A DNA stretch of 48,734 bases, the filler included, from Streblomastix strix (taxonomy: Eukaryota), in assembly GCA_008636045.1 (NCBI GenBank). It is 2 parts of 2 records of this genome, joined end to end, with 100 filler letters (N's around TTAATTAATTAA, not from the genome) between each part and the next. Parts side by side here need not be neighbours in the genome. Positions count along the whole stretch, not along the records: positions 1 to 24,318 come from SNRW01000239.1; 1 more part is not named here. One strand, given 5' to 3'. Of this stretch, positions 6,001-38,508 are shown in pieces; position 1 is the first letter of the stretch, and every line of letters starts with the position of its first letter. The notes under the pieces were generated by a model. The model did no database searches, was not told the origin of the DNA, and saw only the letters and a list, made by a program, of their open reading frames with translations. The position numbers were made by a program, and so were the translations under genes.

Positions 6001-6868
6001 GTGGTGATTCTGAATAAGAAATTGATGATTAATCTCTTTTTAATTTAGATTTAGATTTATTATTTGAATTTGAATGCGAATGGGATTTGGAATGTTTTTA
6101 TGTAATAAATGAAGATTATTATTGTTATTATTAATCTTATTATTTTTTATTTGAAGGAATATGCGATCTTTGATAAGGATTTGTAGTTTCAGATTAAAGA
6201 GGTGAGTAAACATTCCTTATATATTCATTCAAATTCAAATCTCTATCATATTCTCTGATTTTAATAAGTTGATCTTATAGTTTGAATAGAGTAGATTAAA
6301 ATAAATCATCTTCTTTATTTGATATTTTTTATTCATTTATATTTTAATTCATATTATTAAATGAAGGAGATTTCTTCTTAGTAATTGATTGATCCGGTGA
6401 TTGGGATTTCATTCGAATACTTCTGTCAGTTCCATTTATTGAGTAATGAGATCCATTTGGGGGCGAATAAGTAAGTGTTTCATTCGCTTCAATGATTTTT
6501 CGTTCTAAGACTTCAATTTCTTTCTCTCGAAAGTTATTCAGTGCATTTAATCGCGCATTTTCTTCATTTTATAAGTCGTTTTATTTCTGTTTCTCTAAAA
6601 CTTATTTTTCGGTTTGTTTTTGTTTTATTTAAATTTGTTTTTGTAATTAAATTTTATCTTAATTTAGTTTTAGCAGTTCTTAAATTAGACTTTAAAGTTT
6701 CTTTTTGTCAGAAGGCTATAGATTTGCTAAGTTATTTACATGATTATCATTTTATTCATGTTGTTCTAATCGCACAGTCTTTGCTTGCTTCGCATTATTT
6801 AAAATATTTGCTTGTTTGGTGACAGAAGGTAATGGACTCCTATCACTTAATCTATTACTAGAACTCAT
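1..6868 (-). CDS. Very large low-complexity (Gln/Ser/Pro/Asn-rich) protein, 3'-partial; N-terminal coiled coil possibly KIAA1328/hinderin-like
   Basis: With TAR=Gln, ATG 6868 gives MSSSNRLSDRSPLPSVTK...LANLQPSDKKKLQSLIQELLKL. Spot checks at ~3400 and base 4 are in the same frame (>2280 codons, no intron seen). Many SP motifs. The KIAA1328 similarity is motif recall only. Confidence 0.75.
2874..2970 (-). repeat. 21-nt coding tandem repeat (ISPHQHS, ~4.5 copies)
   Basis: Unit gcggagaaatagaatgctaat repeated; in frame on the minus strand. Confidence 0.85.
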
Positions 6869-7800
6869 TAAATGGAAGTGATGAAAATAACTATTACAAA
6901 AAATTATTAAAAATAAATTTATGCAAAATGAATTATTTTGAATTTTAATTTTAAATTAAAATTTTGAGTCAATTTTAGAATATTTTGTAATTATTTTAAA
7001 AAAATGGTATATTAAAATAATTTTAATTTTAAAAATTTGAATAATATATTAAAAATTAGTAAATGAATTGAAAGCAATTGTTTGGGTTTATAGCATTTAT
7101 ATAAAATTAATAAATTAAATTATTATTTAGTATATGCATCATCTACGTAAATTAAAGAATTTCTTTAACTTAATTAAGTGTTTTTATTGAAATTTTGGTA
7201 ATTACCGTTTAACCACACTGTTATTTCTTTTGACTATTCAAATTTTTATTTCTTATTTATATTAGATTTTATTTGACTTTTTATTATTTATTTTAATAAT
7301 TTTTCTCTTTTTGTTGAAATTGGTTTTTCTTTTAATATTTCTATTTTTTTGCCTCAAATTTCTTTCAATATTTGTAATTTACAATTTATTGCGAACTACT
7401 TTTTATCGCTAATTTTTATTTTATTAAATATAAATTAATAATCAATTTTAATATTTATCATCTTCATTTTATCGTTTTTTTCATTTATTAATTCTATTTA
7501 TATATTTATTAGGCATATCTCAATGATGAAGACGACGTATTCAAAGTAATAAAATTTGAAGCGATTCTAGAACCAACAGCAGTGAAAATAAAAGGATCGC
7601 TTTCGTTGGAAAATGGAACAGAATGGAAGAGTAAATGTGCTATTCAATGAGAGTGAAGTTTGATATTTTTTATTATTACAAGTATTATTTATTAATTAAA
7701 TGTCCTTAGGTTGACTTTAAATGTATTTATTTTAATAAATTTAATTATCTTATATTTACTCATTTATTTATTAATATCAATCCATTAACAATACTCAAAG

Positions 7801-8188
7801 AAACATACACAGCGATTATGCATTTGAAGGCGCATATGACTTCATAATCGATATATTATCCAAAGTCAAAGTAGATGGACTTTTCATAGAATACGATGAT
7901 CAAAGATCTGGTGGCTTTGAACCCCTATCTAAAATATTCGCATCGGATCCTACACGAAGAGTAGTTCTCGGACTTGTCACATCCAAATTTGGCAAACTCG
8001 AATCCGAGGATGAACTGATAGCCAGAATTCACGAAGCAGAGAAATGCATCCCTATTGAAAATCTTTGCTTATCAACACAGTGCGGTTTTGCATCTGGCGA
8101 ATAAGGGAACATTATAACTGAAGAGGAACAGTGGGCTAAAATATCTCTGGTTATTAGAGTGGCTAAGAAAGTGTGGAGCGATGCGTGA
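7801..8188 (+). pseudogene. Orphan terminal exon of a cobalamin-independent methionine synthase-like (MetE C-terminal / YxjG-YxjH type) methyltransferase
   Basis: After an AG acceptor at 7800: NIHSDYAFEGAYDF...VDGLFIEYDDQRSGGFEPL...RVVLGLVTSK...RIHEAEKCIPIENLCLSTQCGFASGEQGNIITEEEQWAKI...VWSDA*. No upstream HxC-containing exon recognised nearby. Confidence 0.8.
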
Positions 8189-8792
8189 TAAATAATGATA
8201 AATGATAATAATGATAAATGATTGATAATGGTGAATGAGTTTATTCTTGAATGGGTTTGTATTTATCTTTAGTACGAGGGTATTTTAGAGGAATTTATAT
8301 TTAATTTTGTTTTAGAGAGGAAATTTTAATTTTTAATTTATTTTTATAATTGTTTTTGAGCTTTATAAGAAGATTGAGATGCTTTTACTCTTTTCTGTTA
8401 ATGAAAGAGTTTTATTAAATTTAACTTTTATATTTTCTAAACGGTTTGTTCAATTCCCAATGAATGTAAGAAATTTAATACTAATAAACAAATAGAATGA
8501 AATATAAATTTTAAACTTTTAGGATTATTTTATGCATGGTTATCTTTTATTCAACTATTTCAATTGTATTTATTCAACAAAAAATAAAAAAAGATAAAAT
8601 AAACTCATTATATAAAATTAAATAATATAAAACTCATTGGATGTTATTAATTCTTCTTTATTAATTGGAAATATGGCATTCTGAAAAAAGCATTGCCTAT
8701 TAATAGTTATGTGGAGAACAATTAACAAACTATTATATATTATAATTGGCAAGGCAGTTTTATATTTTTCTTATTCATCAGATCTAATCATT

Positions 8793-10990
8793 TCAATATT
8801 CATCATTACTTTCATCATCTTCCCTTTGTTCATCTTCAATTATATCTTCTGAATCATCTTCATCATTTCTTTATAATTTATTATTATTATTTCCTTAAAT
8901 TTTAAACTTATTTAAAATTTGATTTTTTGCATTGGAGGCATGAATTATAATATTTTTGTCTTAATTAAACATCAAACCATCAATTTCTTCTTATCCATTT
9001 TATTCTTCAACAAATTCTTCATTAGTTTTGATAGTTTCTGATTTAAAATATGTGTATTTATTAGATGACTTCATTTTGTTGTTAATTAATGTGAAGAACT
9101 CAAAGATATTTTCCACCGCCGAATTGATTTCGACATTTCCCTCTGATTCAGATCCTCCACAAGTTCCAATTAGTGAAATTAGTGAACTAACATAATTATT
9201 AATGATAAGAATTTCAACATCATCATTATCTCCAAAATATCGAATTTAATTCAGACATTCACAACTTTTCATTCTTATTAAAGCAGATTTGCAAACTTAT
9301 TCTTCAATTTCATTATCATTTCCTATACATATTATTATATCATTATTTTCATTTTGGCGATCAAGAAGATGATAATTCATTAATTTGATTAATGAAGGAA
9401 TAATGATATGAAATGATGTAACATTACCAACATTTTCCTCGTTGAACATAAATCGATGAAGAAGAATTAATGAAGAATAAATAATATTTTAGAAATTGAT
9501 TATAATTGATTGTGAATATTGATCCTCAATTTATAATTTATGAAATAATTCATTGTTTACAATGTCAATATCAAAATGAACTAGATGATTAAAAAGGATG
9601 AACTTATCTTTAGGATAACTATCATTAAAATACCTATTTGGGAGATTTTCAAATAAATTTAAGGCTGAAGATTGAAGATTAAGAACATAAAGAGTTGATT
9701 TCAAATTTATTCTCTTTTTGCATTGAAGTGAAATTGAGCAATTTATATGAATCAGGTGGATTAAACAGTCATGAATTATAATTGATTGAAATTGATTCTC
9801 ACAATCATAACGTTTTTCATTATTATCATAAATTTTCAAAATTTTGTTTATGAATTTCATTTATTCTTCAATTTCTTCATCTTTCATTATATTATTCATA
9901 TTAAATTCTTAATCATTATTTTTTCTTTGCATAATATTGATTAAATTAGTAATATTCTTATTTATTACTATCTTAATATGTTCATTAATATTTTCTTCAT
10001 TATAAACAAATTCCAATACTAAATATAAAAACGCTGCTAATTATTAAATCAAATCAGAAAAGTTATGATCTTCTATGTTTTCTTCTTATTAAACCTATTA
10101 AACAAAAAGATTTCCAATCTTTGAAATAATACTGGATTTCTATTTATCTTCATAAATCCATTCTTTCAAACATCCTGATTTGAAAAGTATCTCTAATATT
10201 CTTATCAATATTCTTAATGATACTGTTGAACAATTTTCCAATTTAATATAATTCAAATTATTCATCTCGTTTTTTGCTTATGCTACTTTCTTTTCTTCAC
10301 GATTAGAATTTTAAAATTATTATTAAATTTGTGTCAGTAAATATTCTTTGCAAGTATTATTAACTAAATTTGAATTCAACAAAATATTGATTTATTCATC
10401 TGGGAAAATAGTTAAATTTCCAAGAGCTGTTAATTGATAATATAAAAGTAAATATAATTATTAAAATTAATTAATAATTCTTAATAATAATTTATTATTA
10501 ATTGTTAAATGCACACCAATTAATTATGCAAGAGGTTAAAATTTTGAAATATCAATCTTTATTTCTTTATCATCAAGCACCGAATTATTAAGTTTGTTTA
10601 TAGCTTTTTCCGCTGCTTTTCCATTTTTCATCAACACAAATCCATAAATTTGATATTCATACTTAGGAATAAATTACATAAGAACTTTTCCAGCTTTTTC
10701 AAAATGCTTCTTTAACTTCTTTTCATTTGTTTCATAACTCAAATTACTCACAAATAATTAAACTGGATTCTTAATAGTTTTCAAATTTTCTGTTTGTGTA
10801 ATAAATTATATTGAAAATAATCGTTATAATATTCATTATTAAAGTAATTATAATTTTCAATAATATTAATTATCAAACCGATTGATGGAATTACAATAGA
10901 AGGCTTTTCTAAGGAACTCGAAGAACATAACTCATTCTCTGAATATTTGATAAGTTTATCTTAATGATCTCCAGATTCAATTGAAGCCAT
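8793..10990 (-). CDS. RRM-domain protein with a long helical (ARM-like) C-terminal region and acidic tail; probably intron-containing
   Basis: QLFVSNLSYETNEKKLKKHFEKAGKV...YGFVLMKNGKAAEKAINKLNNSVLDDKEIKI shows RNP2/RNP1 (~10550-10760). Ends EDDESNDEY-TGA. Confidence 0.75.
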
Positions 10991-11635: not shown

Positions 11636-12575
11636 TCATTCTCTCCGAGCTTAAACGTCGTTGTAAATTGAAACTATGGTTTGAGATTTTGCAGCATAAT
11701 TATGAATTACTAAGTTTTCAAGCCCATTCATTAATATTTCTGCTTATTATTTGGTCATTAAAGTAACTTCTTAAGAAATTTCTTCATCAACATATGGAAT
11801 ATACTTGTGATTTATTAGATCATGATCAAATTCTAATACTTCAAATAATTAAAATATAGTACTCATATCTTTTTTATTAAACATATCATTTAAATCTTCA
11901 TATACATATACTTAATCTGATATATATTTAAATTTCTTAGTTATTGGATTTTATTCCTTATTTTTGATTCTAATTCCAGGCGATACTATATTTCTTAATT
12001 TTCCTTAATTGTATTCATCAATATATTATTCAACACATGCAAATACATCAACATCATATTTTTCATTAGAACTAATTTTACACATTGAATTACCCTTAAG
12101 ATTAGATACTGATTACATATTACAATATATTTATATGTAAACCACCATGAGCAGTTTATACAAAACCAACATTTAAACTAGTATCTTTCTTCATTTTTTC
12201 TAAGAGTTCATCGCGAACTACCTTTCTTTATTCATCATCCAATGATTTATTGAAATCAATATCAACAACATCTAAATATGGTACCTTAGCAATATTTATG
12301 CAAGATCCAGTGATTTTCTTTCCTTAAGTACCATAATCAATCTTATTATGGAAATATAAGTTAGTTTTAGCATGGAGAATTCTCTCATTTATTGTTTGAG
12401 ATGTGAATTCTAAAGCTTATTAATCAGCACTTGCAATTATAATATCCATAGCTCTTTCCATTTGATCAGCTATTTCTCTTGATACACCATGTTTTGCAAG
12501 AGTTTCATTATATTATTTATCAAGTTACTGTTTTATTTCGGGAGATAATTCTTCGACTTTTTAACTTTGCGCCAT
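11636..12575 (-). pseudogene. Prim-Pol (AEP superfamily) primase-like gene, frameshifted and probably 3'-truncated
   Basis: YLDVVDIDF (DxD) ... VQTAHGGLHI[frameshift ~12130]YCN ... YDVDVF ... RNIVSPG, matching the Prim-Pol motifs. No helicase domain follows. Confidence 0.75.
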
Positions 12576-12894
12576 TTTGCCATCTACCTAAAATGTTATT
12601 TCTAAAAAAAAAGATTAATTAAAAATAATTAAAATAACTAAAAAAAATAATTAAATAAAAAATAATAAAAAATGGAAATTAATTAATTTTTAATAAATCA
12701 AGAAAAATCATTTTTAAAATTCAAAATTTTATGCTCGAGCCTCGAACCGCCTTAAATTCCTTATTTTTAATTAACTTTATATATATAATATTGGATCGTT
12801 TTTTATTATTAATTATGCAAATTAAATTATTTGATTTTGCACTAATTTATAATTAACAAAAATAAATTTAATACACATCTTATTTTTCTATCTT

Positions 12895-13345
12895 TCATCC
12901 ACTCCTAATCATTGTTCCACTAACTTCACCAATGATTTCAAAGTTTAAAACCTAAGGATCAGGTGCATCATTAAAGGTAAATCTAATGATAGTATCACAT
13001 AGATAGTGCATCTGAGGAGTTATCTAAGCATATGTTGGAGTAGGATATGCTCTTGTTGCTATAAATGAAATGAGATTGTTTTGATTTTCATCTGCAGCGC
13101 GTTTAATCAATTCAGTACCGACAATTCCTTCTGTTAAACTACCTGATAAACTAACTTATATATTAGTTCTAGCACCCATTTTAGACGCATTATATCCTCT
13201 CATGAATGAATCATCAGTTGCCATCTTCCAAGCAAGCATGAATTTATGAGGATAATATACTTTTACTGCTTTAGTTCCTACACATAACGTAGTATTATAG
13301 AAGATATTCTCTGTTTCTTAGATATTACCAGTCTTCCTATAGTAA
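12895..13345 (-). pseudogene. C-terminal fragment of a probable major capsid protein
   Basis: VYYPHKFMLAWKMATDDSFMRGYNASKMGARTNIQVSLSGSL...ITPQMHYLCDTIIRFTFNDAPDPQVLNFEIIGEVSGTMIRSG*. No start; alternating beta-strand pattern; sits in the morphogenesis module. Capsid identity is inferred, not proven. Confidence 0.55.
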
Positions 13346-13429
13346 AACTAGTATCAATGGATAATATCATTTAATTACTATTTATCATCTACTCCAAATA
13401 ATTATCGTTATTATTGATTAATAATAATG

Positions 13430-15275
13430 GGTAATTTTAACCTGTTAGTTATATCTCAAATTAGGCATTTCTGAATGTCTTTCTTCCATTAATCGTTTAA
13501 TCAGTTCCAACATTAACTAACTCATTATTATTAAACGTTATTTTTGAACTATCACTATTAATACTTAAACCAACACTATGATCATCTTGTCGTAGAGATG
13601 ATGGGGTTATTGTAAGCGCTTTATCATTTGTTTTACTTATTTCCCATTAACCTGCTTGAGTTGTATTTATAGCCGAAGTATCACATTCTAAATATAATGC
13701 TGAATAATTACTATAATTTTCTATTCTAATGACATTATTATATGTATTATAACTTCGATTCATTGGATTAACTTATATCATATTATTTATTATTCCACCA
13801 TTAGCTAAATCAGAAGTAATTGGTATTTATGTTTATGATCCTGTGATTGAGGTGACAATATCTTATGTTAAAATCTCAGTAACTCGAGTAGCCCAATATG
13901 TACTTTATTTACTTACAGTAACAGTTACCCCTCCGCTACCGGTCATCATATGAATCAATCCAGTATATACAGCAGAAGAATAAGAACCTGTATGTGTATG
14001 TAATATCTAATCAACTCCATAGTATATATTATATCCAGTTTATACATATTATGGAGCAGTAATATTGCCATAAAGCTCAACGATTCCATTAACGGTATAA
14101 TTAGGAACCAAATCAATAGTTTACATAGCGTTTGTATTACATGTTACTTAGAATTATATATAAGGTGCTCTTGTACTTGTTCCTGTAGGAAATACACATA
14201 ATCAAATATATCCACCGGATCCACTAGAATATTATCTTGATAATTTTGAATCTATCGTTGTTGTATCACCATTGGCGCATAACACTTCTGAAGCAGTTCC
14301 ACCTGATTTAATAAATTTAGTAGCAGTAATGTTACCATCATAAGTCAATTGCTATGGATGAATATGATCATGTCTTGAATAATATGCTGAAGTACCATTA
14401 TTTCCAACTCCATTAACTATAGGTACAATTGAAGCATTAGTTTAGACATTATTAGGATGAGAATGATCATTTCTAGCGTAAGAATCAACTGTACTATAAG
14501 ATCCTTCTGCTGAATCAATATTAGGAATAGTATCTACAGTCTGAATTGGATGTTAATGATCCGATCTTGCATAAGAACTAGCTTATCCAACAGTACCAAC
14601 TGATGTATCTTTACTTGATAAAACATCAGAAACTTATAGTGGATGCTTATGATCTCCTCGTGAATACTCATTTGAAGTTCTTGCAACTCCAGTTCCACTA
14701 TCAACTAATGGAATAGCATCACTTGCAGGAATTACTTAATCAGGAACTGGATCTCCACTGTTATACCAATTCTAATCATACATCCATACTGTTTCACTTT
14801 CAGCAGAGAAAGCAAAGTCACCATTGGCAGAGTTTTCTAATTATTATATATCTGTGTTCAATAAATAATACCTTCTAAAATGTGTTTATCTATTAAGTTC
14901 ATCATTAGTTACATTAATTTATTATTACAAACCACCAATATCTTAAGTTGCAGTTCCCAAAGTCTATTATAATACGTTAACTTCTTATTCTAACGTAGTT
15001 ATTTTACCTAAGAAATCACTATTTAATAAATTTATATTTTTCAATGTCATTATACCATTAGTTTCCAGTTTCATAGCATAATTCAATGGATTATCTATTG
15101 GTGCATATATTAATGAGTTTTAATCATCAACTGTCAATGATTATTCACTTCCTAATAATTAATTATTGGAACTTGATGATTTTTTTGAATACTGTATCAA
15201 ATATTGAAAATCTGATTAAATCAAAGAACGAATAACTTAGATCTATTATTTACTCAAGGTTTTAGCTAATGTCAT
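13430..15275 (-). pseudogene. Long fibre/spike protein with phage tail-fibre-type repeats; internal stop, 3' end lost
   Basis: Coiled coil, then four repeats YSRGDHKHP / YARSDHQHP / YARNDHSHP / YSRHDHIHP, then KFIKSGGTASEVLCANGD, a beta-rich region and VNVGTDQTINGRKTF. In-frame TGA at 14202-14204. Confidence 0.75.
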
Positions 15276-15313
15276 ATTTGAATAAAGAAAAATAAATATA
15301 ATCATAAAATGTA

Positions 15314-16327
15314 TCATTGATTCTTTAGTATTTCATATTTACTCTACCATTTATTAAGTATTATGAATTCATATTTATTAAGAGTTCCATACAGTAACAT
15401 AAACTCATCAAAGTCAAGATTCTATATAGAATTCTCTTCATAGGCTTGTTTTAAATCACTTTCAGATAGATTAACTCCTAAACACATGACATGAGATAAA
15501 ATTCTAGCAGTTTTAAATAAGTAACTTGGACGTTAAGCAACAAAGAAAACTGAATTTTTACTAAGTCTACTGTCGGAAACTAAATGTGTTATTGTCTTAG
15601 CTAATCCTGAAGAGAATCTTTAAATATCAGCATTACTTCCTATTTCATCAAATATTAACAATGAATTTAATAATAAACTATGGAATAATATAGTAATCTT
15701 CGTTACTTTTAATTCTGCATCACCATCATCTTATGATATTTCTATTTTTCTCTCGAATTACACGTTATGAATCATTGCAGGAATAGTAAATCTCATTATC
15801 ATTGTTGGAACACTATATTTAGTTATGATATTAATATATTCTTAACGAAATATCTATGCAATTCTTCTTGCATAATCCTTAGGTTTTTCTAATTATTATT
15901 CAGGTGTTGCTGAAGCAATTCGTGATGGATTCTATTTTATTGGATTCATTATTAATATTCTTTCTTTCATTCTCTATATATAATCAGATTTGTACGATAC
16001 ATTTACTTCACTTAACTTCCAATATGTATATATTTCATTAACTTAATATTTAATTTCATCAAATTAAGGAAATAAATACATAGCTTCATCGTATGTTATA
16101 TTTGTTAAGATTATATTCTTAGAGTTTAGATTCAATGCCATAGTCTCATCAGCTCCAAAATTAGAGAAATATAAAATGAATGGATTGATTTTTTATTTGT
16201 AGATTACTATCAGTTTACTTAATAAAGTTGTTTTACCTGAATCAACTGCACCAACTATATAATGATTCTCATTGATTAAAAATAATGAATTCCTTGTCAA
16301 TGGCTTGGTTTTATATTCATCTAACAT
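15314..16327 (-). CDS. A32/FtsK-HerA-type genome packaging ATPase
   Basis: Walker A YIVGAVDSGKTT, Walker B LLIFDE, then DSR...VFFVAQR. Span is 338 codons. An upstream ATG at 16373 is one base out of frame. Confidence 0.85.
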
Positions 16328-16396
16328 AGAATTATCCGTAAAATGTCACAGATTATATCTCAGATAATGTCATTATATTTTTTATAAAACAAACAT

Positions 16397-16780
16397 ATGT
16401 TAAATATTATTATAATAATAATAAATTCTATATTTTATGGAGTTAACTTCATTGTATCTATAATTTCTCTATCAATTCCTAAGTAATTAACAGATATTAT
16501 TGCATTAATAAAATAATTATGGAGTTATTTTGATGTGATTCCAGTTCCTATTAATATAATTATATATATATTTCAGTTTGTTTATCGTCGAAGAAAGAAA
16601 TTAAAAATGGAATCATAGGAGAAACCAAGATATTTTCATTGGTTTAAGTATTCAAATGAATAAACTGAGGATTTCATTAAAGAAGCGATTGAAAAATAAG
16701 ATGAGGAACTTGCAAAGTAGTGGAGATATATATTGTATTTAAAGTTATTGAATCTTAAGACATATGATAATGGTAATTGA
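16397..16780 (+). CDS. Small viral membrane protein (two hydrophobic segments followed by RRRKK), 127 aa
   Basis: MLNIIIIIINSIFYGVNFIVSIISLSIP...VIPVPINIIIYIFQFVYRRRKKLKMESQEKPRYFHWF...; intact ORF under TAR=Gln, divergent from the ATPase. Confidence 0.6.
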
Positions 16781-16814
16781 AATGTAATATATCTTCAATT
16801 TTATTTGTAATTTA

Positions 16815-17588
16815 TCGACTAGCCGATTAATTATGAATTGCATATGAATCACAAACTTAAACACAAAAATCCTTAGATAAATTAATCTAACACATTGTAT
16901 TTATTATAACATTACCATTAGAATTAATATAGCAATCTATAGGAATTGAACCAGTCCAAACTATTGGATAATCATATACTCTTTACGCAAACATAACAGC
17001 ATTTAACGGTATGTTAGTTGGTGTTCCACTGAATTTTGGTTTTATGACATTATCAACGATTGAGAATAAAGTATATGCAGATTAACAAAGAGTATTTTGA
17101 TCTGAGTGAGTTATTTGCATTGAAAGATATACTCTACTATTTTATGTTGTTAGTGTACCCCATACTCGTGTTTCATACATTCCATAAGCAATAGCTGAAT
17201 AACGTGCGTCTTCAATAGGTTGATAATCTAATTTATCTTTATCAATAGTATCTCCATTAGCTAATAATATTTAATTACTTGTTCCACCTAATTTAATGAT
17301 TCTATTAGCTGTGATAGGCTATGTAAATGATTTGATTCCAGTAATAACTTATGCTGTATTCAATGTTACAAAGTCAGATATTGATTATTTCTTAAAGAAT
17401 TAACTAAAGTAAGTAAAATATTTTATTATTTCACTATCTATTTATTAAGTTATTTATTTTTACAATTTCTTCAGTGATTCTTTTTCTTATTATTATTTCT
17501 TCATCTTCTCATATTCTGATTTCATTTATTATAGTTCTTCTTCTAATGGATCCTCAAGATCAGTTATTTATTACGCTTCTTATTCCAT
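16815..17588 (-). CDS. Short fibre-like protein (coiled coil + tail-fibre motifs + beta-rich head); 3' end approximate
   Basis: FVTLNTAQVITGIKSFTQPITANRIIKLGGTSNQILLANGD shares both motif types with the long fibre. No TGA where the head appears to end (AGT CGA at ~16815). Confidence 0.7.
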
Positions 17589-17630
17589 TAGTTTTCAACA
17601 AAAATAAACAATTTCATAGTGAGGTTATAT

Positions 17631-18425
17631 TCAGAAATGCGTAGCGTTACTGTAAATCTTCGATTTTCAGAAATCGTTTGGTTCAATGTTAGATTCTATT
17701 GTTTCTGATAATCTAACATAGTCTTTGTTGACTCGATACAGCTTCTCAATACTATTCCATAATACGTTATCTATGTTGGAAATTGAGACATTTTTAATGA
17801 GAACATCTAAAATGCGAATTAAATCTTTCTTTTTATATGATCTGCTGCCAATGCACCAATGTTATCTCATCAGTGGTTCTTCCATTACAACTTCTATGTC
17901 TTTCTCCTCTTCTTATGTTATTAATGACAATAGTTTTATATAGTTATTAGAAGAAAATATGAAATCTTCACCACGTTTTCTTGTTGAGGTATTCTTCCAA
18001 ATCGTATCTATGAAGAATTTCTATACTTCTAAGTTAGGATGAGATAAGTAAGTATCCTTAACAACTTATTCTGGTTCAACCTAAGCAGTTTCACGTGGAA
18101 CTTCTTTATATTTATTAATATTATACTTATGTCTTCGTGGTCTTTCAGTTTATATCTCTCATTGTGGTTCCTCTTGCTCTTATCGTACATAAGATCTGCT
18201 CACATTTATGAGTTCATCGATGGTTAAATCTCTGCTTCGTAATGGTGTCTGAATCGAAGATTATATTTATAATGCTGGAATTTACACTGCCTTTCTGAAT
18301 CCGTTCGCTATAGCTTCATCAATGGCTTATAATCTAGCCTTATCTTCTTCTGAAAGTTCTTTCTTAACAACACTCGCATGTTTGCTTTTATGAACTCTCA
18401 TTTGATTTGTTTGTATTGTAGTCAT
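17631..18425 (-). pseudogene. Viral hypothetical protein with two in-frame TGA
   Basis: MTTIQTNQMRVHKSKH...KFFIDTIWKN...SKIYSNATHF*, 265 codons; internal TGA at 18159-18161 and 17667-17669. Confidence 0.6.
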
Positions 18426-18466
18426 AATATTTTGTGTTTAAATAAAATCAATAAGTATCTTATAAA

Positions 18467-19129
18467 ATGAATCAAGCATAGGCATTAAAGAATTTCATGG
18501 AAAACGGAACTTCAATTGAATATTTCAATAATGGATATATTATGTAAGTTAAAGATAAGATCAAAGTATATGAAGAAAGAAAGAAAGCAGCAAGAACTCT
18601 GACTCAAGCTTAATAAACTAAATTATTATTAGAAGCAAGAGGTGGAGGATAAACAAAACCTAATCGAGTATTAAAAATACATGTTAAATAGAACAGCGAT
18701 AAAGAAGCAGATGATGAGTAAGAAGATTATCACATGAATATCGACGATGATGACTGTGATGATTAATAAATTATCGTAGAATAAGCAACGAAGTTGCCTG
18801 CCGACTGGTAACCAAGATAAACTCCAAAACCAAAACCAATGAAAACAACAAAGAAGTAACCATAGATAAATGAATCTTCTCCATAAGTAGATTTAGAGGA
18901 ATTAATACGTTTACGAACAGAAAACTCATTTAAAAAGTAATAACATCAAGAATCTATTAAACTAGCTGAGAAATATAAAGCAAAAATAAGAGATTATAAA
19001 TAAAGGAAACTTAACGATGAATAATCAGAGCAAATATAAACTCCACCATAAGAATAAATTCCTGAATATTAAGAATAAAAATAACAATAATAATAAGAAC
19101 TTAGATTTAATGAAACAGATTTGTGGTGA
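18467..19129 (+). CDS. Viral hypothetical charged/disordered protein, 220 aa
   Basis: MNQAQALKNFMENGTSIEYFNNGYIM...ELRFNETDLW*; open ATG to TGA under TAR=Gln. Confidence 0.7.
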
Positions 19130-19161
19130 CTGCATTCTTCGTCATTGCTTACGCAGTGAAA

Positions 19162-19655
19162 TCAATCAGTTTCAACATCACGTTCATTATTCTCTTCAGA
19201 TGAATTATTATGATTTTCTTATATATATCCTAGTTATTAAAATGTTACTTGATCTTGATCCCTAATACTCAATAATTCCTATATTTTTATAACTTTCTCA
19301 TCGTATTAATCAATTATTTTATGAATCCAAGCAAGTTCATCTCTATTTGGAATTACAATTCTTTACAAACGTTGAATTAGTAATAACTAAGAATTCGGAG
19401 CATTATACTTATATTCAAGTGCTTTTTATTTATCCTTAGCATCATTAATTCTCTTCATGATTCGTTGAGCTTATTTTGCATCTTCTTCAGTTGCATACTT
19501 ACGTTTTCGAAGCTTCAAATTAGGAATTTAAGGTAATTCATCAGGAGATTTAAGTTTGAGATATTATCAGCGAATATTTATAATTATTCTTCAGGAGATT
19601 TAACTGGAACACTAAATTACCACTTCTCTTTTAAAGCTTTTGGCACAATTGCCAT
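19162..19655 (-). pseudogene. Small basic helical viral protein, frameshifted
   Basis: MAIVPKALKEKW...[frameshift ~19561]LKSPDELPQIPNLKLRKRKYATEEDAKQAQR...ERDVETD*. Confidence 0.55.
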
Positions 19656-19704
19656 GTTTCTATTTTTGATAAGAAATAAACGAAAAATAATAAAAAATTA
19701 AATT

Positions 19705-20877
19705 TCATATTTTAAAATATTATTTATATTTTTCATCTAATTATTGAATATTTTAAGCTTTTAATTTACAATATTATATTGGTAATTCTATTATTTTTAT
19801 ATCATTATATGGCTTTAATAATTTAGCAGATACATTACCATTAGAGTACTTAATAAACTCAGCTAATTCATTGAAATTTCTTCTTTATTTAATGAACTAA
19901 TGACTTGTTTTTGAGTAATCAAGATGAATCATTAGTAAATTTCCTCGTTAGAATGATAATAAGCCTTTGTTTTATTATTATTATTTAATTTCAAATAATT
20001 TATCTTATTATTATCTTATATATTATCCTTCGATGTCTTAGTTGTCATTAGCTTATTATGGTGAGTATTTATTATCATACGCAGAATGAGGAGTCTAATT
20101 ATACATCTTAACCATATGCTACGTCAAATCATTATCAGCGAATTTCTATCAATCATCACTAAATCCATTATGAATCGTTTTAATAACTGAGTCAACAACT
20201 CTATTATGATTAGTGAACTAAGAATCAGTGAAGAATGAGGTTATTTTATGTTCCTAGCAAAATGATTTCAATATACTTCCATTAAATCCCTTCTCACCAT
20301 CACATCTGATATTAGTAACATGATAATTCTTAACTAGTATTTACAAAGCATTCTTAATTTAGCCTGCTGATTTATCTCTTAATGGGAAAACAACGAGATA
20401 TTTAGTGTTGATATTGATACAGAATAGATATATTTAATTTGCTCTGATAATTCGTTCATCCATTGAGACTAAGTCAATTTCCCATGATCCAAGTTTTGGT
20501 GAGAAATATGGACGATTCAGCTTTGATAATGGCTTAATTTAGTAATCAGGAGGAATTTCTTGGATTTACTCAGGTGATTTGCCATGAAGCTTCTTAAAAT
20601 GCTCTATTTTGGATTTGAAGCGATATTTTAGATGGTAAGCGGATTCGGCTTCCCCTTAATTTTTTGCTTGAATTCTTGGTTAGTTACGTAATCTTGGTGC
20701 ACTTGATTAATCATGCTTTAAAATATATTATTTATATAATATCTCCAGTTATTTCTCATTCAATTTTCTCAAGTTTTACTTATTAAAATTCTTAACAAAT
20801 TCTTAATATTTCATTTAATTCATGTTGTGATAGGCGATATATTCAATCCATTAATCTATGTTTTATTAGCGATTCAT
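19705..20877 (-). pseudogene. Retroviral-type (rve) integrase of Polinton type with an internal stop
   Basis: RPYFSPKLGSWEIDL, YLFCININTKYLVVFPL, NIRCDGEKGF, HNRVVDSVIKTI, YNQTPHSAY; 391 codons; in-frame TGA at 20149-20151. Confidence 0.85.
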
Positions 20878-21062
20878 TTTTGAAAATTTAAAAATACCTC
20901 GTTCTAATGGAGGTTTACATATATATACAAAGCTGAAATCTGTAGAGAATTACATCATAAAATGTAGCAAATCTAATATTTATATACAAATCATCGTTTA
21001 TATATGCCTGGATACGTATTAGAAAGAATAGACAATGAGTTTATCAACTGCCAATGATAAAT

Positions 21063-24000
21063 TCAAAGTTATGATTATTCTTAATCAATCTTATATTAAC
21101 TAGATTTCAAACCATGAATATATGGCGCACAAGCTTAATTTCTAAGAACTATTGTTTTTGTGTTGATTTCACTGATTCCTATTCTTTCTTATATGACTTA
21201 TGATAATATTTCTTGTTTATGAATTAAAGATGTGTTATTTACTTTAATTATTATATTTTTATTAATGTTGTCTTCATATTATTATTTATTTATTTATTTA
21301 TTCTATTCTTGTTTTACTCCTTTCAATTTCATGGTTATTTTTTAATTCTTATTATTATCCATATAATAACACTTTGGAGCTAATGCTAAGCAAGTTGTAG
21401 ATTCTGATTCAATATTCCAACCTCATATCTTCTTCTTATCTTAGTAATTATTATCACTCACTGAAGAAAATAGCTATGAATATAATTAATCTCATAGTTT
21501 CTTATCTTTAATTGGCAAACTCTCATGAGCTATAGCTAAGCATAAACTATCAGTATCACCATAGATAACATGAATATAATCCATATCTAAGCAAGGAGTT
21601 AGAAAATTATAGTAAGCATTGAGATAGAAGTACTTTGAGTTATCCATAGTGAAGTAAGCAACTTATAATGGTGTTGAGCATGAACATCTCTTCTTTTCTA
21701 ATTCAACAATGAAGCAATTCTCGGAAATCTACTTATCAGTAAGAAACGTATTGGCCATATGATGTTTCCATAAGATTTTCTTATTGCACAATCTAAAATT
21801 TTTATATTTCTCTGAGTTAATAGAATCATAACCAAATGAGGTATTCACTTCAAGTTTGTTCTTTAATTCTTCACCTTTGTTACTTTCAATATGAGCCTTA
21901 CAACGAAGATTTATATTAGTTTTAACAAATTCATTGAATTAACAGTGTTTATTAAAGACAATAAGCTATTTAATATCATCAGTCACTAAATGAGAACGAT
22001 CTGTAAAAACCACAGATAATAATTATTGAGTTACATATATTCATCATGAGTTGATAATAGCATCATTAATTTCTATTCATCAATATCGTGTTACATATTA
22101 TTTTTTGTCATATTTTCATAAGTATATTCACCAACAGTATCTTTATCAGTGATTATCTTAAGATTTCTCCAAATAACAGGGAAATTAATGAATTCATTAA
22201 TATATTCATTAGAAATATGAGCTTTGACTTTAGCTATGAGTTATTGAACATTCTTGTTTATTATATCTTCATCAGAAGAGAATCTATGCTTATTGAATAT
22301 GTAATTATTTTGCTTATTCTTAGTCATGAATAACATATTTAACTCCTCCTGGCATGTACATCCAATGATTTGTATATGGAATTAGTGGATGTTGTTCTGA
22401 ACTCATACAAGAACCATAGAAACTATTGAAATCTAGACATATTATATTTTCAACGATATGACGAAGCTCATAAGATATTACCTGATTATCTTATAGTTTA
22501 AATTTATGAATTTAAGTCTTTCCAGCGATATTTTCTCTATGAATAACGAATGAATTACCACTTATCATATCATTACGTAATGAATCATATACTTCCTGAT
22601 TAGAAATAGTCATTGGTAAACTATATAATTCACAATATTTACTTAATTATATCATTAATCTCGGTTTCCTTATCTTTATTAGAAGCATACTTATTACAGT
22701 ATAGACAACAAGATAATACATTAGATTTAGTATGAGATTTCTCGTTATCTATTCTATCTAGTGTTGGCTTATTATCATAAGTAAATCTTGCTTAATACAT
22801 GTGACATCGTTATATTAAGAATACATCATGAAAATATTAATAATCATCATAAGTGATGTTATGATCTATTCTTCTCTTCTTTCGTTTATCTTACTCATTG
22901 CATGAATTGACTTTAGATTTCCAGTATTCCATAGATAAATCAAAGGGATTGGCTTTGTCTTCAGGATTATAACATGATGAAATATTAAAATTCTTATAGG
23001 CAAATGCGTATTTCTTTAAGCAAGATAATTTTGTTAACGAAGTATTCTATAGAAGATCTATATGATATGGAATATAATCATTAATTCTATTATCAATTGC
23101 TGATAATAATAGCTATGATTATCGTATTATATCATTGCTTAATTAGACTTTACCAATATCTCTTAGAAAATCATCGAGTTCCATATTAGCACTGACATAG
23201 TTCTTGGCATCAATAAATTTTAGATGAATGGAGTTATCAGTGGGTTTAACAATGATGTGTATTGGACAACTTCTTGAACCTGGTCTATCGATAATTTCAT
23301 TCTTCATTTATTTAATATTCTTAAATACTAGTGTCGTAGCTGATTTCAAACAGTCAAATCCAATAACATGTACTTCATATCGTTAAGGAACTTCATCAGA
23401 GAATTTATTATCTCTACGGATTTACAATGCTTCACTGAACACCTGGTCAAGCAATTTCTCAACGAAATCTTATTAAGAATTATCATATGATATAGTCTTG
23501 ATATAGTTCTTGGCTTTAATAGTTGATGCTACAGCTGTTTGGGTAAGATTTGGATATTAATAACCACGAATTTTCTATAACTCAGTTTAAAACCTGAATG
23601 TTATGTAATATTATGTTGCTTTATGCTCTGATTCTCTATTATGAGCAAGAAGATATCTATACGTCTTATTTGATGTTATTTGTGGAACAAATGGCTTAGG
23701 AAACTTCTTTAAAGTAATATATTTCTTGATTTAACCATTGTTTTTCTGGCGTTCTTTCATATGAGTATCCATTTTTCTCTTTGAATTATTATTAGGATCC
23801 TTGGTGAATACTGCGTGATTATTACATATAGGACAGATTTTAATACCTAATAGCTTCTCAACACTAATAATATACCTGAGATATTGGTTTCCGTCATCAT
23901 TGTTAAGAAGAAAAATATTATAATGCCTAGCTTATTAGTTATTAATATGATAATTAGTGAATAATTTATAAGGAACTTCAACGTTCTTATCATCATACTC

Positions 24001-24318
24001 ATAGCAATTGATATTGATATTGAATTTCTAACATACTTTCAATGAATCATCCCAATTAAATCCATGATAATTCTTAAGAAATTCACGTTGATTTTCTTTC
24101 TTGACACTGTAGAATTCAAAAAATAATCTTTTACCTTCAGCATTTCTTGAATTACGATCAATTTCAATTCCTTTTGAATCAGGCTTTGTTATACAAGTTA
24201 GATTATACCAGAAGCAAGTATTATAATCATCATCACAATGAATATATTTTATGATACTCTTCTTATTTTTATGAATCTTAATGAGCTCTTCCATATTCTT
24301 TCCAGGAAATGGTAATCT
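21063..24318 (-). pseudogene. Protein-primed family B DNA polymerase, degenerate, 5'-partial
   Basis: CLDFNSFYGS (motif A), KNKLEVNTSFGYD (motif B), IYGDTDS (motif C), ALAPKCY, KLKGV; upstream CPIC..H finger and degenerate exonuclease motifs. TGA at 21492 and 21423; frameshift ~22005. Confidence 0.9.
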
Positions 24319-24418
24319 NNNNNNNNNNNNNNNNNNNNNNNNNNNNNNNNNNNNNNNNNNNNTTAATTAATTAANNNNNNNNNNNNNNNNNNNNNNNNNN
24401 NNNNNNNNNNNNNNNNNN
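24319..24418. other. Artificial 100-nt contig linker (N44-TTAATTAATTAA-N44)
   Basis: Symmetric N runs around a palindromic six-frame-stop 12-mer; genes on both sides are cut. Confidence 0.95.
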
Positions 24419-24509: not shown

Positions 24510-25776
24510 TTTATCAGCTTTTGGACTTATCTTTTAAGGTTTGTAAGATATATTTTGTTTGTTAATTAAGGTAAGGACAGTTCGAAATCTCTTATATAGG
24601 TATTTAATATAATAAAATCTAATTATTTCTATTAGTAAATATTTTATGCACTGAATATAAATATAGAGCAATTGACAAACGTTTTGCAGATCCATAATTT
24701 AATACAGATGTGATGAAACCGATGCTCATTGAATAATTGATGGATAAAGATATAATGCATCTTTCTGGGGGTATATTATTTATCTATTAATTATTTAATT
24801 ATAATTTACATGTTCATATATTAATAATTAGGTGAATTATAACGTGTTGCAATTGTGATGTGTTTAGGAAAACCAGCAGATGTTTATTTAATTGATGAAC
24901 CATCAGCATATCTTGATGCAGAGTAAAGAGTTGTTACAGCAAGAGTAATTAAAAGATATATAATGCATTCTAAAAAGACAGCATTTGTAGTTGAACATGA
25001 TTTTATTATGGCAACTTACTTAGCTGATCATGTCATTGTTTTTGAAGGTTATATATAACATTTTTTATCAATTTTTTTGTTTATTTTTTAACTTGTAACA
25101 ATATATCTTTAAAACTAATTCAATATATATTTATTATCTATTGACAACTTATTTATTTATTTATTAGGAACGCCTTCTAAATAATGCATAGGAAGATCTC
25201 CATAAACATTATTGACTGGTATTTAATTTTACTTATATTTCATTTCTTAATTTATACCATAATTATAAATTGAAAATATTTTTATTTTAGGATTAAACCA
25301 TTTCCTTTCTCAACTTGAAATAACATTCAGAAGAGATCCAACAAACTTTAGGTATTAATTATTCATGTATTTATTTATTTATTATTATTTATTTATTAAT
25401 TAAAGGCCAAGAATTAATAAATACAATTCTGTTAAGGACAGAGAATAGAAAGAAAGTGGAAACTATTTCTTTGTTGGAGAAATTGGTGAAGATGAAGAAG
25501 GAAAGAAAGGATCTGGAATTGCAGGTATTTATCTTAATTAAAATAGAATAACTGAAATATAAATAAATATATTAATTATTTACAGCTATTGGAGCATCAT
25601 CTATTGCTGAACGTAAGGAGTTGACTAAAAAGATGAAAAAAGAGAAACGAGCCGATGAAGCTGCAGCTGCTGCTCAGAAGAAAGCGAAGAAAGAAGCAAA
25701 TTTGGGGTCAAAGAAAGATCTTGAAGATCCAGAAGAATATAATGAGGACGAAGAAGCGGATGATGAGGAAAATTGA
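24510..25776 (+). CDS. ABCE1: ABCE1/RLI1 ribosome-recycling ATPase, 3' part, multi-exon
   Basis: [36 protein letters not shown]...[16 protein letters not shown]...[33 protein letters not shown], with GT-AG introns. 5' boundary approximate. Confidence 0.95.
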
Positions 25777-27993: not shown

Positions 27994-29750
27994 TCATTTT
28001 CCCTATGGATTTGTTGCACCCTCACGCCGAAGTAGAATAGGATTAGGAGCTTTGTTTGCTTAGTGGTAAGTTGATATAATTGATGATTAGGGAAGTTTTA
28101 CCTCAGATGCATTCTATTACATAGCTTGCTGCTTTCGTCGTTTTGTATCCATCGTGTGACATTCCATAGCAAATGGAGGAATTTCTTATGGTTCACACGG
28201 AAGTGGTTCGGTCCAAAAGAATGCATGATTCAGCGCTTCGTGTGCTTTCAATCTCTTTGCTGGGTTTAACTATAATAATTTTTCTAGTAAATCCACTGCA
28301 GAAGGAGGTTAATTCTTGAATCTTTCTGAAATAGTTCTCTATCGGTCTTTATCAGGTTTATATCGAGCAATTGATGCATTAATTCCACTTATTCCCATTC
28401 CAATGTTTTATGCTGCTGCATTTCCACGATAATAAGGTAAGTTCTCCACTTCAGGCCAATCCATTATATTTGGAGTTCCACACAATTTCCAAATTAAATC
28501 AAGTTAATCTGGTTCTTATTAACCTGGCATCAATACAACACCACCTGTTAGAAATTCTCCAAGAATACAACCAACACTCCACATATCAATTGATGAATCA
28601 TATGTCTATGCTCCTAATAGAAGTTCTGGAGGTCTATACCAAAGTGTAATAACCCTTGATGTGAAGATATTATCCCTTCTTTTATCAAATTCTCTGGCTA
28701 ATCCAAAATCTGCTATTTTCAATTCTCCTTTTTGTCCAATAAGAAGATTAGCTCCTTTTAGATCCCTATGAACAATATGATTCTTATGCATAAGTTATAC
28801 TCCTTATAATAACTACTTCATATAACATTTAATTTGTGGAAGTGTCAATCTTCCCGCCTCTGCTTCTAACAAACCTGCTAAATCATGCTCCAAATATTCA
28901 AATACATAATAAATATTTTCTAAATTTCAATTCAATGAGCAGAAGATAAATAAATAACATATAATAAAAAGAATTATTAAATAATAAATTATCTAAAATA
29001 ATTAATAATATACTTCCTTATGTAATAACTCGCTTTAAATCGACTATATTTGGGTGTCTTAACCTTTTTAAAAGCTTTATTTCTCTCACTGCTGTTAAAG
29101 GAAACTATATAAAATAAATACATTCATTGTTATAATTATACTAATTAATAAATAAATACATTCATTGTTATAATTATACTAATTAATAAATAAATACATT
29201 CATTGTTATAATTATACTAATTAATAAATAAATACATTCATTATTATAATTATACTAATTAATAAATAAATACATTCATTATTATAATTATACTAATTAA
29301 TAAATAAATACATTCATTATTATAATTATACTAATTAATAAATAAATACATTCATTATTATAATTATACTAATTAATAAATAAATANNNNNNNNNNTAAT
29401 AAATAAATACATTCATTATTATAATTATACTAATTAATAAATAAATACATTCATTATTATAATTATACTAATTAATAAATAAATACATTCATTATTATAA
29501 TTATACTAATTAATAAATAAATAATATATATTTATACCCCTTCCTTCTCATAGTCCAACTTTGCACGTTTGAGAGCAACCAATTCTCCAGTTGTTGAATC
29601 TCTTGCACGTTAAACATCACCATAAGTTCCTTTGCCAATGTCCTGCCGATCTACATAGTCCATTATGTTACTGCTGCATTTTTATTTCAATTCTCCTGAT
29701 CCAATACTTAATGTAGATGATAAAGTTGTCCCAGGAAAGAAACTAGACAT
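27994..29750 (-). CDS. Cyclin-dependent kinase, CDK9/CDK12/13 (transcriptional CDK) type
   Basis: [62 protein letters not shown]; two introns. Confidence 0.92.
29111..29523. repeat. 38-nt intronic minisatellite, at least 10 copies, with a 10-N gap
   Basis: aataaataaatacattcatt(g/a)ttataattatactaatt repeated inside CDK intron 1. Confidence 0.95.
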
Positions 29751-29803
29751 TTTCTTGATAAATTGATAATATTTAAATTGAATAATTAGTAAGAATTAAA
29801 AAC

Positions 29804-30366
29804 ATAAATAAATATATGGTTAATAAGTTTAAATATATTTTGAAGAAATAAGAAAGAGTGTTTCTATCGGATAAATATAGTTTGTTTTAAGTCGGTTATA
29901 ATTGTCGTTTGATATTGTTAATATTTCATTATATTTAGAAAAGAAATAGAAAGAGTTAGCATGACATAGAATTGGTTAATTGAAATAAAAATATTTTATA
30001 TAGTACACTTTAAACGTGATTTTGTGAAAAAAAACTAAATGTTAAATTAAAATATTAGAAGGATTAAATTGTTGTTGTTAGTAAATAAGAATTAAATATT
30101 GAATATAATAATCTGCAAATATTGTATTTGCAATGTTAGAGTGCAATGATTGGAGTAAATAACATTGAAAAAGCGAATTTGTATGAAAAGAAACGTATTT
30201 ATGTTATAATTATTGGTGTAAATGAAAAAGTATAAATTTAAATTTTATATAAATACAAGAATTTTCTTTAATAGTTCCTAATTATTTATTGATTAACAAT
30301 TGATTTATTAAAACTTTTATTTTTATATTTCCTTATAGTCGAACTTCAATTTATGTTAATCGTGCA

Positions 30367-35064: not shown

Positions 35065-35077
35065 TTACTAAAAAAAT

Positions 35078-35669
35078 ATAAATAAATATATGGTTAATAA
35101 GTTTAAATATATTTTGAAGAAATAAGAAAGAGCGTTTCTATCGGATAAATATAGTTTGTTTTAAGTTTGTTATAATTGTCGTTTGATATTGTTAATATTT
35201 CATTATATTTAGAAAAGAAATAGAAAGAGTTAGCATGACATAGAATTGGTTAATTGAAATAAAAATATTTTATATAGTACACTTTAAACGTGATTTTGTG
35301 AAAAAAAACTAAATGTTAAATTAAAATATTAGAAGGATTAAATTGTTGTTGTTAGTAAATAAGAATTAAATATTGAATATAATAATCTGCAAATATTGTA
35401 TTTGCAATGTTAGAGTGCAATGATTGGAGTAAATAACATTGAAAAAGCGAATTTGTATGAAAAGAAACGTATTTATGTTATAATTATTGGTGTAAATGAA
35501 AATGTATAAATTTAAATTTTATATAAATACAAGAATTTTCTTTAATAGTTCCTAATTATTTATTGATTAACAATTGATTTATTAAAACTTTTATTTTTAT
35601 ATTTCCTTATAGTCAAACTTCAATTTATGTTAATCGTGCATCATTTCTACATTGTTTTATCATCTTTAT
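35078..35669. repeat. 592-bp direct repeat, copy 2
   Basis: Matches 29804-30395. Confidence 0.95.
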
Positions 35670-38437: not shown

Positions 38438-38508
38438 CAAATATAATATTGACGTTGATATATTTTTTTTATCAGAACTTCTGTGTAATTTGTTGATATT
38501 TTCTAATA

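Follow-up and report, generated by a model that had tools for sequence, protein, structure and literature searches.

A decayed Polinton-like virus under a reassigned genetic code in Streblomastix strix, and a probable second capsid lineage in the same host

What kind of element occupies a stretch of protist DNA in which the standard genetic code finds almost no genes? We addressed this question for positions 11636-24318 of a 48,734-nucleotide stretch of the Streblomastix strix assembly GCA_008636045.1 (the whole stretch is hereafter the window). Our findings identify this interval as an integrated Polinton-like virus (PLV), now decayed. More specifically, we regard it as highly probable that it is a broken and internally deleted copy inserted into the DNA of a termite-gut flagellate (likely S. 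strix) in which TAA and TAG are read as glutamine, and likely belonging to a second capsid lineage of this host. This reading draws on direct observations: which genes are present, the code they use, where they are broken, the host sequence to their left and over 100 distinct capsid relatives that bear the same host label.

The window is AT-rich eukaryotic DNA, and its reading frames are open only under translation table 6. With the standard code, 11636-24318 holds two ATG-initiated open reading frames (ORFs) of at least 80 amino acids (13 in the whole window), and no stop-free run longer than 96 codons occurs in any of 16 viral segments; table 6, by contrast, reveals 11 genes that together occupy 93% of the interval, which bears out an earlier first-pass annotation that had proposed about 11 packed genes mostly missed by standard-code ORFs. 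TAA or TAG encodes 234 of the 276 glutamines in the viral genes (85%; 3,608 viral codons counted), against 325 of 406 (80%) and 30 of 43 (70%) in two host genes. At the glutamine of an ATPase motif the window has TAA, and glutamine occupies this site in 17 of 18 relatives and in the standard-code metagenome element L002; since the recoded table had also been used to translate the S. strix relatives, the independent witness is L002. G+C content is 27.0% in the element vs 22.2% and 23.4% in the flanks. An endogenous PLV in a metamonad, hidden by this code as the same annotation had claimed, is thus supported, and such viruses had already been published for S. strix (PMC10120064).

Gene content of the element

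Read from right to left, the element comprises a DNA polymerase B of the protein-primed type (pPolB), an integrase, ORF C, ORF B, ORF A, fibre-like gene 2, a small hydrophobic ORF, a packaging ATPase, fibre-like gene 1, a capsid remnant and a primase-like gene, all on the minus strand except ORF B and the hydrophobic ORF. The pPolB gene (21063..24318) has a vOTU-like N-terminal part, an HNH-type nuclease insert that precedes the palm, and motifs A, B and C in order. Its pieces match PF03175 (E 1.2e-5, with 24.9 bits for a cut-off of 25.8, and E 0.012), three pieces match the DNA polymerase family phrog_1907, and the insert matches phrog_3118 (HNH, E 1.1e-7). Judged by motif only, the N-terminal part carries the vOTU-like cysteine (compare PMC11161782, in the parts covered here) with a tyrosine at the histidine site. 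Three frame changes and two internal stops interrupt the gene, and its 5' end is lost at the contig end. The rve-type integrase (19705..20877) is recognized over one and the same stretch by PF00665 (E 0.013) and by an IS30 transposase family (E 0.0012), both below cut-off; it shows an acidic triad D, D, D and an in-frame TGA at 20149-20151.

The A32-type packaging ATPase (15314..16373) is open from 15314 to 16345, with its first 10 codons in another frame. Among 1,929 candidates 45 scored as relatives, all labelled Streblomastix strix, and two of these, P0002 and P0005 (85% and 81% identical to the window copy), match PF04665 above its cut-off; the window's own copy gave no PF04665 match at E 0.1. 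It departs from near-invariant columns at nine positions, some of them in the two Walker motifs (A and B) and in the RH motif, a count that lies within the 0-11 seen in 16 of 18 relatives (19 and 51 in the remaining two). Sequence searches of the PDB with the integrase and the ATPase returned no match.

Fibre-like gene 1 (13351..15275) encodes a coiled coil, four R.DH.HP repeats (residues 206, 237, 268 and 301) and a beta-rich tail; it has a frame break near 14203, its 3' end is deleted, and no library match was obtained for it. Fibre-like gene 2 (16674..17588) has a 27-amino-acid segment in common with it (56%, E 3e-6), and from the repeats and this segment we infer a fibre role for both. The hydrophobic ORF (16343..16780, plus strand) contains a hydrophobic stretch, or perhaps two (hydropathy over 19 residues peaks at 2.0), has no meaningful family match, and possibly encodes a membrane protein. 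The pPolB, integrase, ATPase, both fibre-like genes and this ORF were thus located as first annotated. The ORFs without an assigned role are ORF A (17630..18425; read by six-frame translation, no family match), which is interrupted by TGA at 18159-18161 and 17667-17669 and matches the start of P0006 at 62%, ORF B (18467..19129, plus strand; 220 residues, charged, no match in Pfam, PHROGs or NCBIfam) and ORF C (19162..19566; one unnamed PHROG, E 4e-5).

The primase-like gene (11636..12575) is, at the level of motifs, a likely candidate for an AEP/Prim-Pol. DxD, GGxH and a downstream R..V.P, motifs expected of an AEP/Prim-Pol, were read by eye in its translation; DxD and GGxH recur in P0148, to which the gene is 34-37% identical, and identity to P0109 is 54%. 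It is truncated at the element's left end and frameshifted near 12130, contigs of other copies being 4 nucleotides shorter at 12128. Pfam, PHROG, NCBIfam and the PDB gave no match, none of 331 longer candidates scored, and the relative P0148 had no phage, plasmid or PDB match; a structural model (predicted local distance difference test, pLDDT, 32) returned only RRM- or ferredoxin-like folds at E 0.06 or worse. The Prim-Pol that the first-pass annotation had added to the core therefore has the expected motifs but no library or fold support; a capsid-then-primase order recurs in two other copies. Separately, a 105-nucleotide A/T-rich stretch 5' of this gene (12604-12706) matches, in reverse, sequence near the polymerase 3' end (~21238-21342; 70%, E 3e-6), likely as low complexity.

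Decay and the evidence from other copies

Frameshift, TGA, deletion or truncation has broken seven of the 11 genes (primase-like gene, capsid, fibre 1, ATPase, ORF A, integrase and polymerase). At 13349..13351 the cut end of fibre 1 is joined to the capsid remnant; the first ~490 capsid residues are gone, and the N-terminal ~400-500 residues of relatives match nothing in the window. Three contigs in the set X1 continue past 13349 into sequence read as upstream capsid of the P0046 type, and the junction is therefore marked as a deletion. Introns were rejected as the cause of the frame breaks, as differences from other copies amount to only 1-4 nucleotides. At 16242, 15019 and 18051 the window's letter is carried in X1 at about flank-level depth (84-178 of tens of thousands), and at several sites (e.g., 15564 and 23328) no contig compared carries it, so part of the damage may be assembly error; the deletion is unlikely to be one. 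Because it lacks three quarters of the capsid gene and an unbroken polymerase frame, this copy is unlikely to produce particles by itself. No terminal repeats are visible, as the element breaks off on the left within the primase-like gene and on the right at the contig end.

Summed depth in X1, which is no copy number, amounts to 56-184 on the left flank as compared with 2,282-83,757 within the element, with a step from 6-41 to 1,766 at ~11666. That the primase-like gene has less depth than the ATPase was given no weight, as contig depth cannot rank genes.

Gene adjacency in other copies was read, within 301 proteins screened, from erroneous database models in which adjacent viral ORFs have been merged into one gene. 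The ATPase is followed by fibre 1 in 12 fused models, fibre 2 by the ATPase in three (P0006, P0007 and P0027) and the capsid by the primase in two; eight further models join the ATPase or capsid to fibre 2, seven of them reversed. Three of the 45 ATPases lie on the same record as a capsid. In one of these cases, on a 14,773-bp record, the adjacent tags EZS28_006611 and EZS28_006610 run ORF A, fibre 2, ATPase, then capsid and primase, which is the order of the window. P0006 and P0109 are neighbours on a single record, and their identities to the ATPase and the capsid of the window are 90% and 82%. In P0087, of another subfamily, the capsid is followed by HNH and then by a vOTU-like polymerase start instead of the primase. 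As read from these models, gene order is kept in the window's subfamily and variable in others. Many database copies are also fragmentary. Pattern scans of viral contigs with A1, P0250, P0242, A2 and A5 and a first metagenome scan recovered no relative.

The capsid family and the published Streblomastix viruses

The capsid remnant (12895..13350) holds only the C-terminal ~151 amino acids of a major capsid protein and is 93% identical to residues 408-558 of P0046; a quick tree with long branches among outsiders, used only to place the remnant, groups it with P0046, P0048 and P0051. The claimed capsid gene is thus present, reduced to the end of a ~640-residue protein. Out of 221 candidates, 103 scored as relatives; every one bears the S. 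strix label, and they reach ~650 amino acids in length. Of these, 59 have at least 500 residues, 10 bear the UniRef label 'Major capsid protein', and subfamilies stand at 50-60% identity. The family is too divergent for a Pfam match. The full-length relative P0054, modelled from 46 sequences (pLDDT 51), returned in Foldseek 32 of 32 PDB rows from hexon, D13, iridovirus, PBCV-1, Sputnik and mavirus, all jelly-roll capsid or scaffold entries, and in the viral fold library BFVD hexon, virophage and giant-virus capsids ranked on top (best E 0.018 in the PDB and 0.0017 in BFVD; best Z 4.8). Virophage capsids appear among these weak rows beside hexons and capsids of nucleocytoplasmic large DNA viruses. 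A jelly-roll capsid, as in Polintons, is thus weakly indicated for the family: the prediction found only jelly-roll PDB rows, none of them reaching E 0.001.

Within the literature searched, which excluded preprint supplements, these elements in Streblomastix are treated only in PMC10120064 (Bellas 2023). The parts of that study covered here report 820 capsid hits in S. strix, ~11% of the genome and the same TAA/TAG code, and place the S. strix capsids in one cluster shared with Trichomonas (the 'Metamonada group', MMPC_40); the printed capsids are ~545-562 amino acids long and 30-33% identical to those of Trichomonas and Tritrichomonas, and the DIAMOND cut-off was 23% identity over 100 amino acids. 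S. strix was absent from, or nothing was added to it by, the covered parts of PMC11296320, 10.64898/2026.10.13.758929, 10.1101/2024.03.23.586382 and 10.1101/2025.04.19.649669.

Judged from sequence comparisons, the family described here likely forms a lineage of its own, the second in this host beside the Trichomonas-like one. None of eight S. strix tags from the Bellas tables (53 of 794 places viewed) occurs among the 103 capsid relatives, and a motif of the single S. strix capsid printed in the covered text is found in none of 301 proteins screened. A profile search with the family gave 212 proteins, of which 150 were listed and 20 of these looked up: 10 were S. strix, and the other 10 were long, distant proteins, unlabelled or 'hypothetical', from Logan, ENA, JGI and NCBI on contigs of up to 21.8 kb, none of them with a Trichomonas name. 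The family measures ~640-650 amino acids, and its metagenome kin stand at 21-30% identity. The first-pass notion of a divergent lineage thus gains support, as the capsid family appears distinct from the Trichomonas-like capsids in the covered parts of PMC10120064. Recoded viruses of S. strix were already known, and what is new is likely an additional lineage. We lean, if only modestly, towards a second, unreported Streblomastix PLV lineage with more than 100 capsid variants, whose nearest kin are standard-code metagenome elements, in which ~85% of glutamine codons would have been recoded after host entry and at least one subfamily would pair pPolB with a primase.

The metagenome elements L001 and L002 have a capsid (26% over the remnant) and an ATPase (27%; hhalign 99.7%) homologous to those of the window and close together. 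They differ from it in using the standard code (no TAA or TAG within four genes checked), and their other genes have no match to the window; no polymerase was found on 13.4 kb of their sequence. Downstream of the ATPase, L002 carries three tandem look-alike ORFs of ~200 amino acids and a 701-amino-acid ORF (5380-9443), all without Pfam matches; by eye, the last of these is possibly a minor capsid.

Compared with MMPC_40, the host label, the TAA/TAG glutamines of the element genes, the high copy number and a highly divergent jelly-roll capsid are alike, whereas this family is longer, has none of the eight tags and finds its nearest outsiders among metagenome proteins; the covered parts of PMC10120064 give no gene map for S. 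strix elements. With group 1 Maverick-Polintons (Polintoviricetes; PMC11161782, parts covered) the element has in common a pPolB that combines a vOTU-like part with a nuclease insert, as well as the rve integrase, the A32 ATPase and the jelly-roll capsid. It differs in its Pfam-invisible capsid and its extra primase-like gene, and in this incomplete copy neither a Ulp1/adenain protease nor a minor capsid was seen. A primase-like gene beside the capsid gene is likewise present in group 2 Polintons and in PLVs whose replicase is AEP or AEP-SF3 (bioRxiv 10.64898/2026.06.19.733378), though there AEP usually replaces pPolB, whereas here both lie in one stretch and no helicase domain was recognized. 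The covered parts of these sources describe fibres, AEP primases and nuclease inserts as known in the Polinton/PLV group (PMC11161782; bioRxiv 10.64898/2026.06.19.733378), pPolB paired with a primase-helicase as uncommon (PMC3671162), replicase swaps as common, and metamonad elements as still ungrouped in the 2026 framework, with more genomes requested (both bioRxiv 10.64898/2026.06.19.733378). By analogy with known Polinton biology, the rve integrase of an intact member would insert it, the protein-primed polymerase would replicate it in the form of linear DNA, and the A32 ATPase would drive that DNA into a fibre-bearing capsid of double-jelly-roll proteins; the putative primase may act as an additional replicase or as a helper to the first, and may at one time have been fused to a helicase. 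With ~85% of its glutamines as TAA or TAG, the lineage could be translated only by hosts that use this code, and this heavy recoding likely reflects long residence in such hosts.

Alternative readings and their weight

Several points weigh against our interpretation of the interval as a decayed PLV copy of a second lineage. X4 gives no clear step in depth, and the window may itself derive from X1. The Pfam matches of integrase and polymerase lie below the Pfam cut-offs, the capsid model is poor and without a fold match at E 0.001 or Z 5, and gene order differs in other subfamilies. In this incomplete copy neither terminal inverted repeats nor a target-site duplication was found; among the window's ORFs, library scans identified no minor capsid (penton), a gene that the deletion could have removed, and Pfam matched no adenovirus-type protease. 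Stops in such elements can be assembly errors, according to the covered text of Bellas 2023 (PMC10120064). The second lineage itself draws on tags, motif and length, from the viewed rows of the Bellas tables and the 150 of 212 profile matches listed; on the defining property of MMPC_40, clustering with a Trichomonas capsid at 25% identity, the absent tags and motif lean against membership.

That the copy is an ordinary MMPC_40 member, already among the 820 capsid hits and nothing new, is possible though rather unlikely: host label, code and kind of element all agree, and the published DIAMOND cut-off could have caught distant members, yet the missing tags and motif, the greater capsid length and the lower identity to outsiders argue against it. 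We are somewhat more doubtful that the interval is a composite, in which an element with pPolB, integrase, ATPase and fibres was joined at 13350 by recombination or misassembly to one with capsid and primase, no natural virus having both replicases. The break at 13350 is real, the P0087 subfamily has a polymerase start in place of the primase, replicase swaps are common in this virus group, and pPolB and primase together were seen in no other record or copy examined; against this, the record with P0006 and P0109 runs from ATPase-side genes to capsid and then primase in close relatives of the window's genes, and the stretch from ATPase to pPolB showed no further break.

It is improbable that the element is intact in the cell and its breaks are errors from collapsed repeats. 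Polishing removed such stops in another protist (Bellas 2023, PMC10120064, in the parts covered), and the window's letter is private to it at several sites, but other private letters are carried at flank-level depth, a 1.5-kb capsid loss and a cut primase are no polishing errors, and many database copies are fragmentary too. More improbable still is a capsid-less, self-copying transposon family with capsid genes as relics, a reading suggested by the loss of most of the capsid gene here; the many relatives of at least 500 amino acids, the retention of capsid across subfamilies and the joint travel of capsid and ATPase in the distant L001 and L002 stand against it. Long retained capsids and this linkage suggest selection on particle genes. 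As a remnant the window copy is dead, and that S. strix has recoded viruses is known in general; the copy's value lies in a first gene map for a capsid lineage with standard-code relatives, such that virus recoding to the host code becomes traceable on a tree. Capsid counts seeded from Trichomonas may miss the whole lineage. If the second lineage holds true, the viral load of the host would exceed the published ~11%, and the two lineages would provide a paired test of how viruses adopt their host's altered code.

Host flanks and other features of the window

The left host flank (7721..10679), read under table 6, contains a methionine-synthase exon (PF01717, E 2e-5) and an RRM gene (PF00076, E 1.2e-11), and has the low summed depth in X1 described above. 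The former belongs to a cobalamin-independent methionine synthase catalytic domain with introns (7540-8188, plus strand; PF01717), possibly a bacterial-type gene in a gut flagellate. Further left, an intron-free host frame of 2,365 codons (2-7096, minus strand) holds 325 TAA/TAG codons and has no Pfam match.

At 24319..24418 lies a 100-nucleotide linker (44 N, 12 nucleotides and 44 N), whose 12-nucleotide word has stops in all six frames; it is likely a join of two contigs, and the element's end at 24318 is therefore technical, not biological. Neighbours across it are not to be taken as linked. To its right is the 3' part of an intron-bearing ABC-ATPase host gene (24741-25610, plus strand), for which Pfam gives only ABC_tran (E 0.0096) and which looks like ABCE1/Rli1; insertion of the element into this gene is unsupported, as the linker stands between them. 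No tRNA was found. Elsewhere in the window, ~12 tandem copies of a 38-nucleotide unit with a 10-N gap lie inside a kinase gene region (29070-29561), two 300-nucleotide copies, 99% identical and 5.3 kb apart (29798-30097 and 35072-35371), could belong to a dispersed repeat or delimit a small mobile element, and non-canonical poly(A) polymerase domains (PF22600 and PF03828) are encoded at 37004-41244 on the plus strand.

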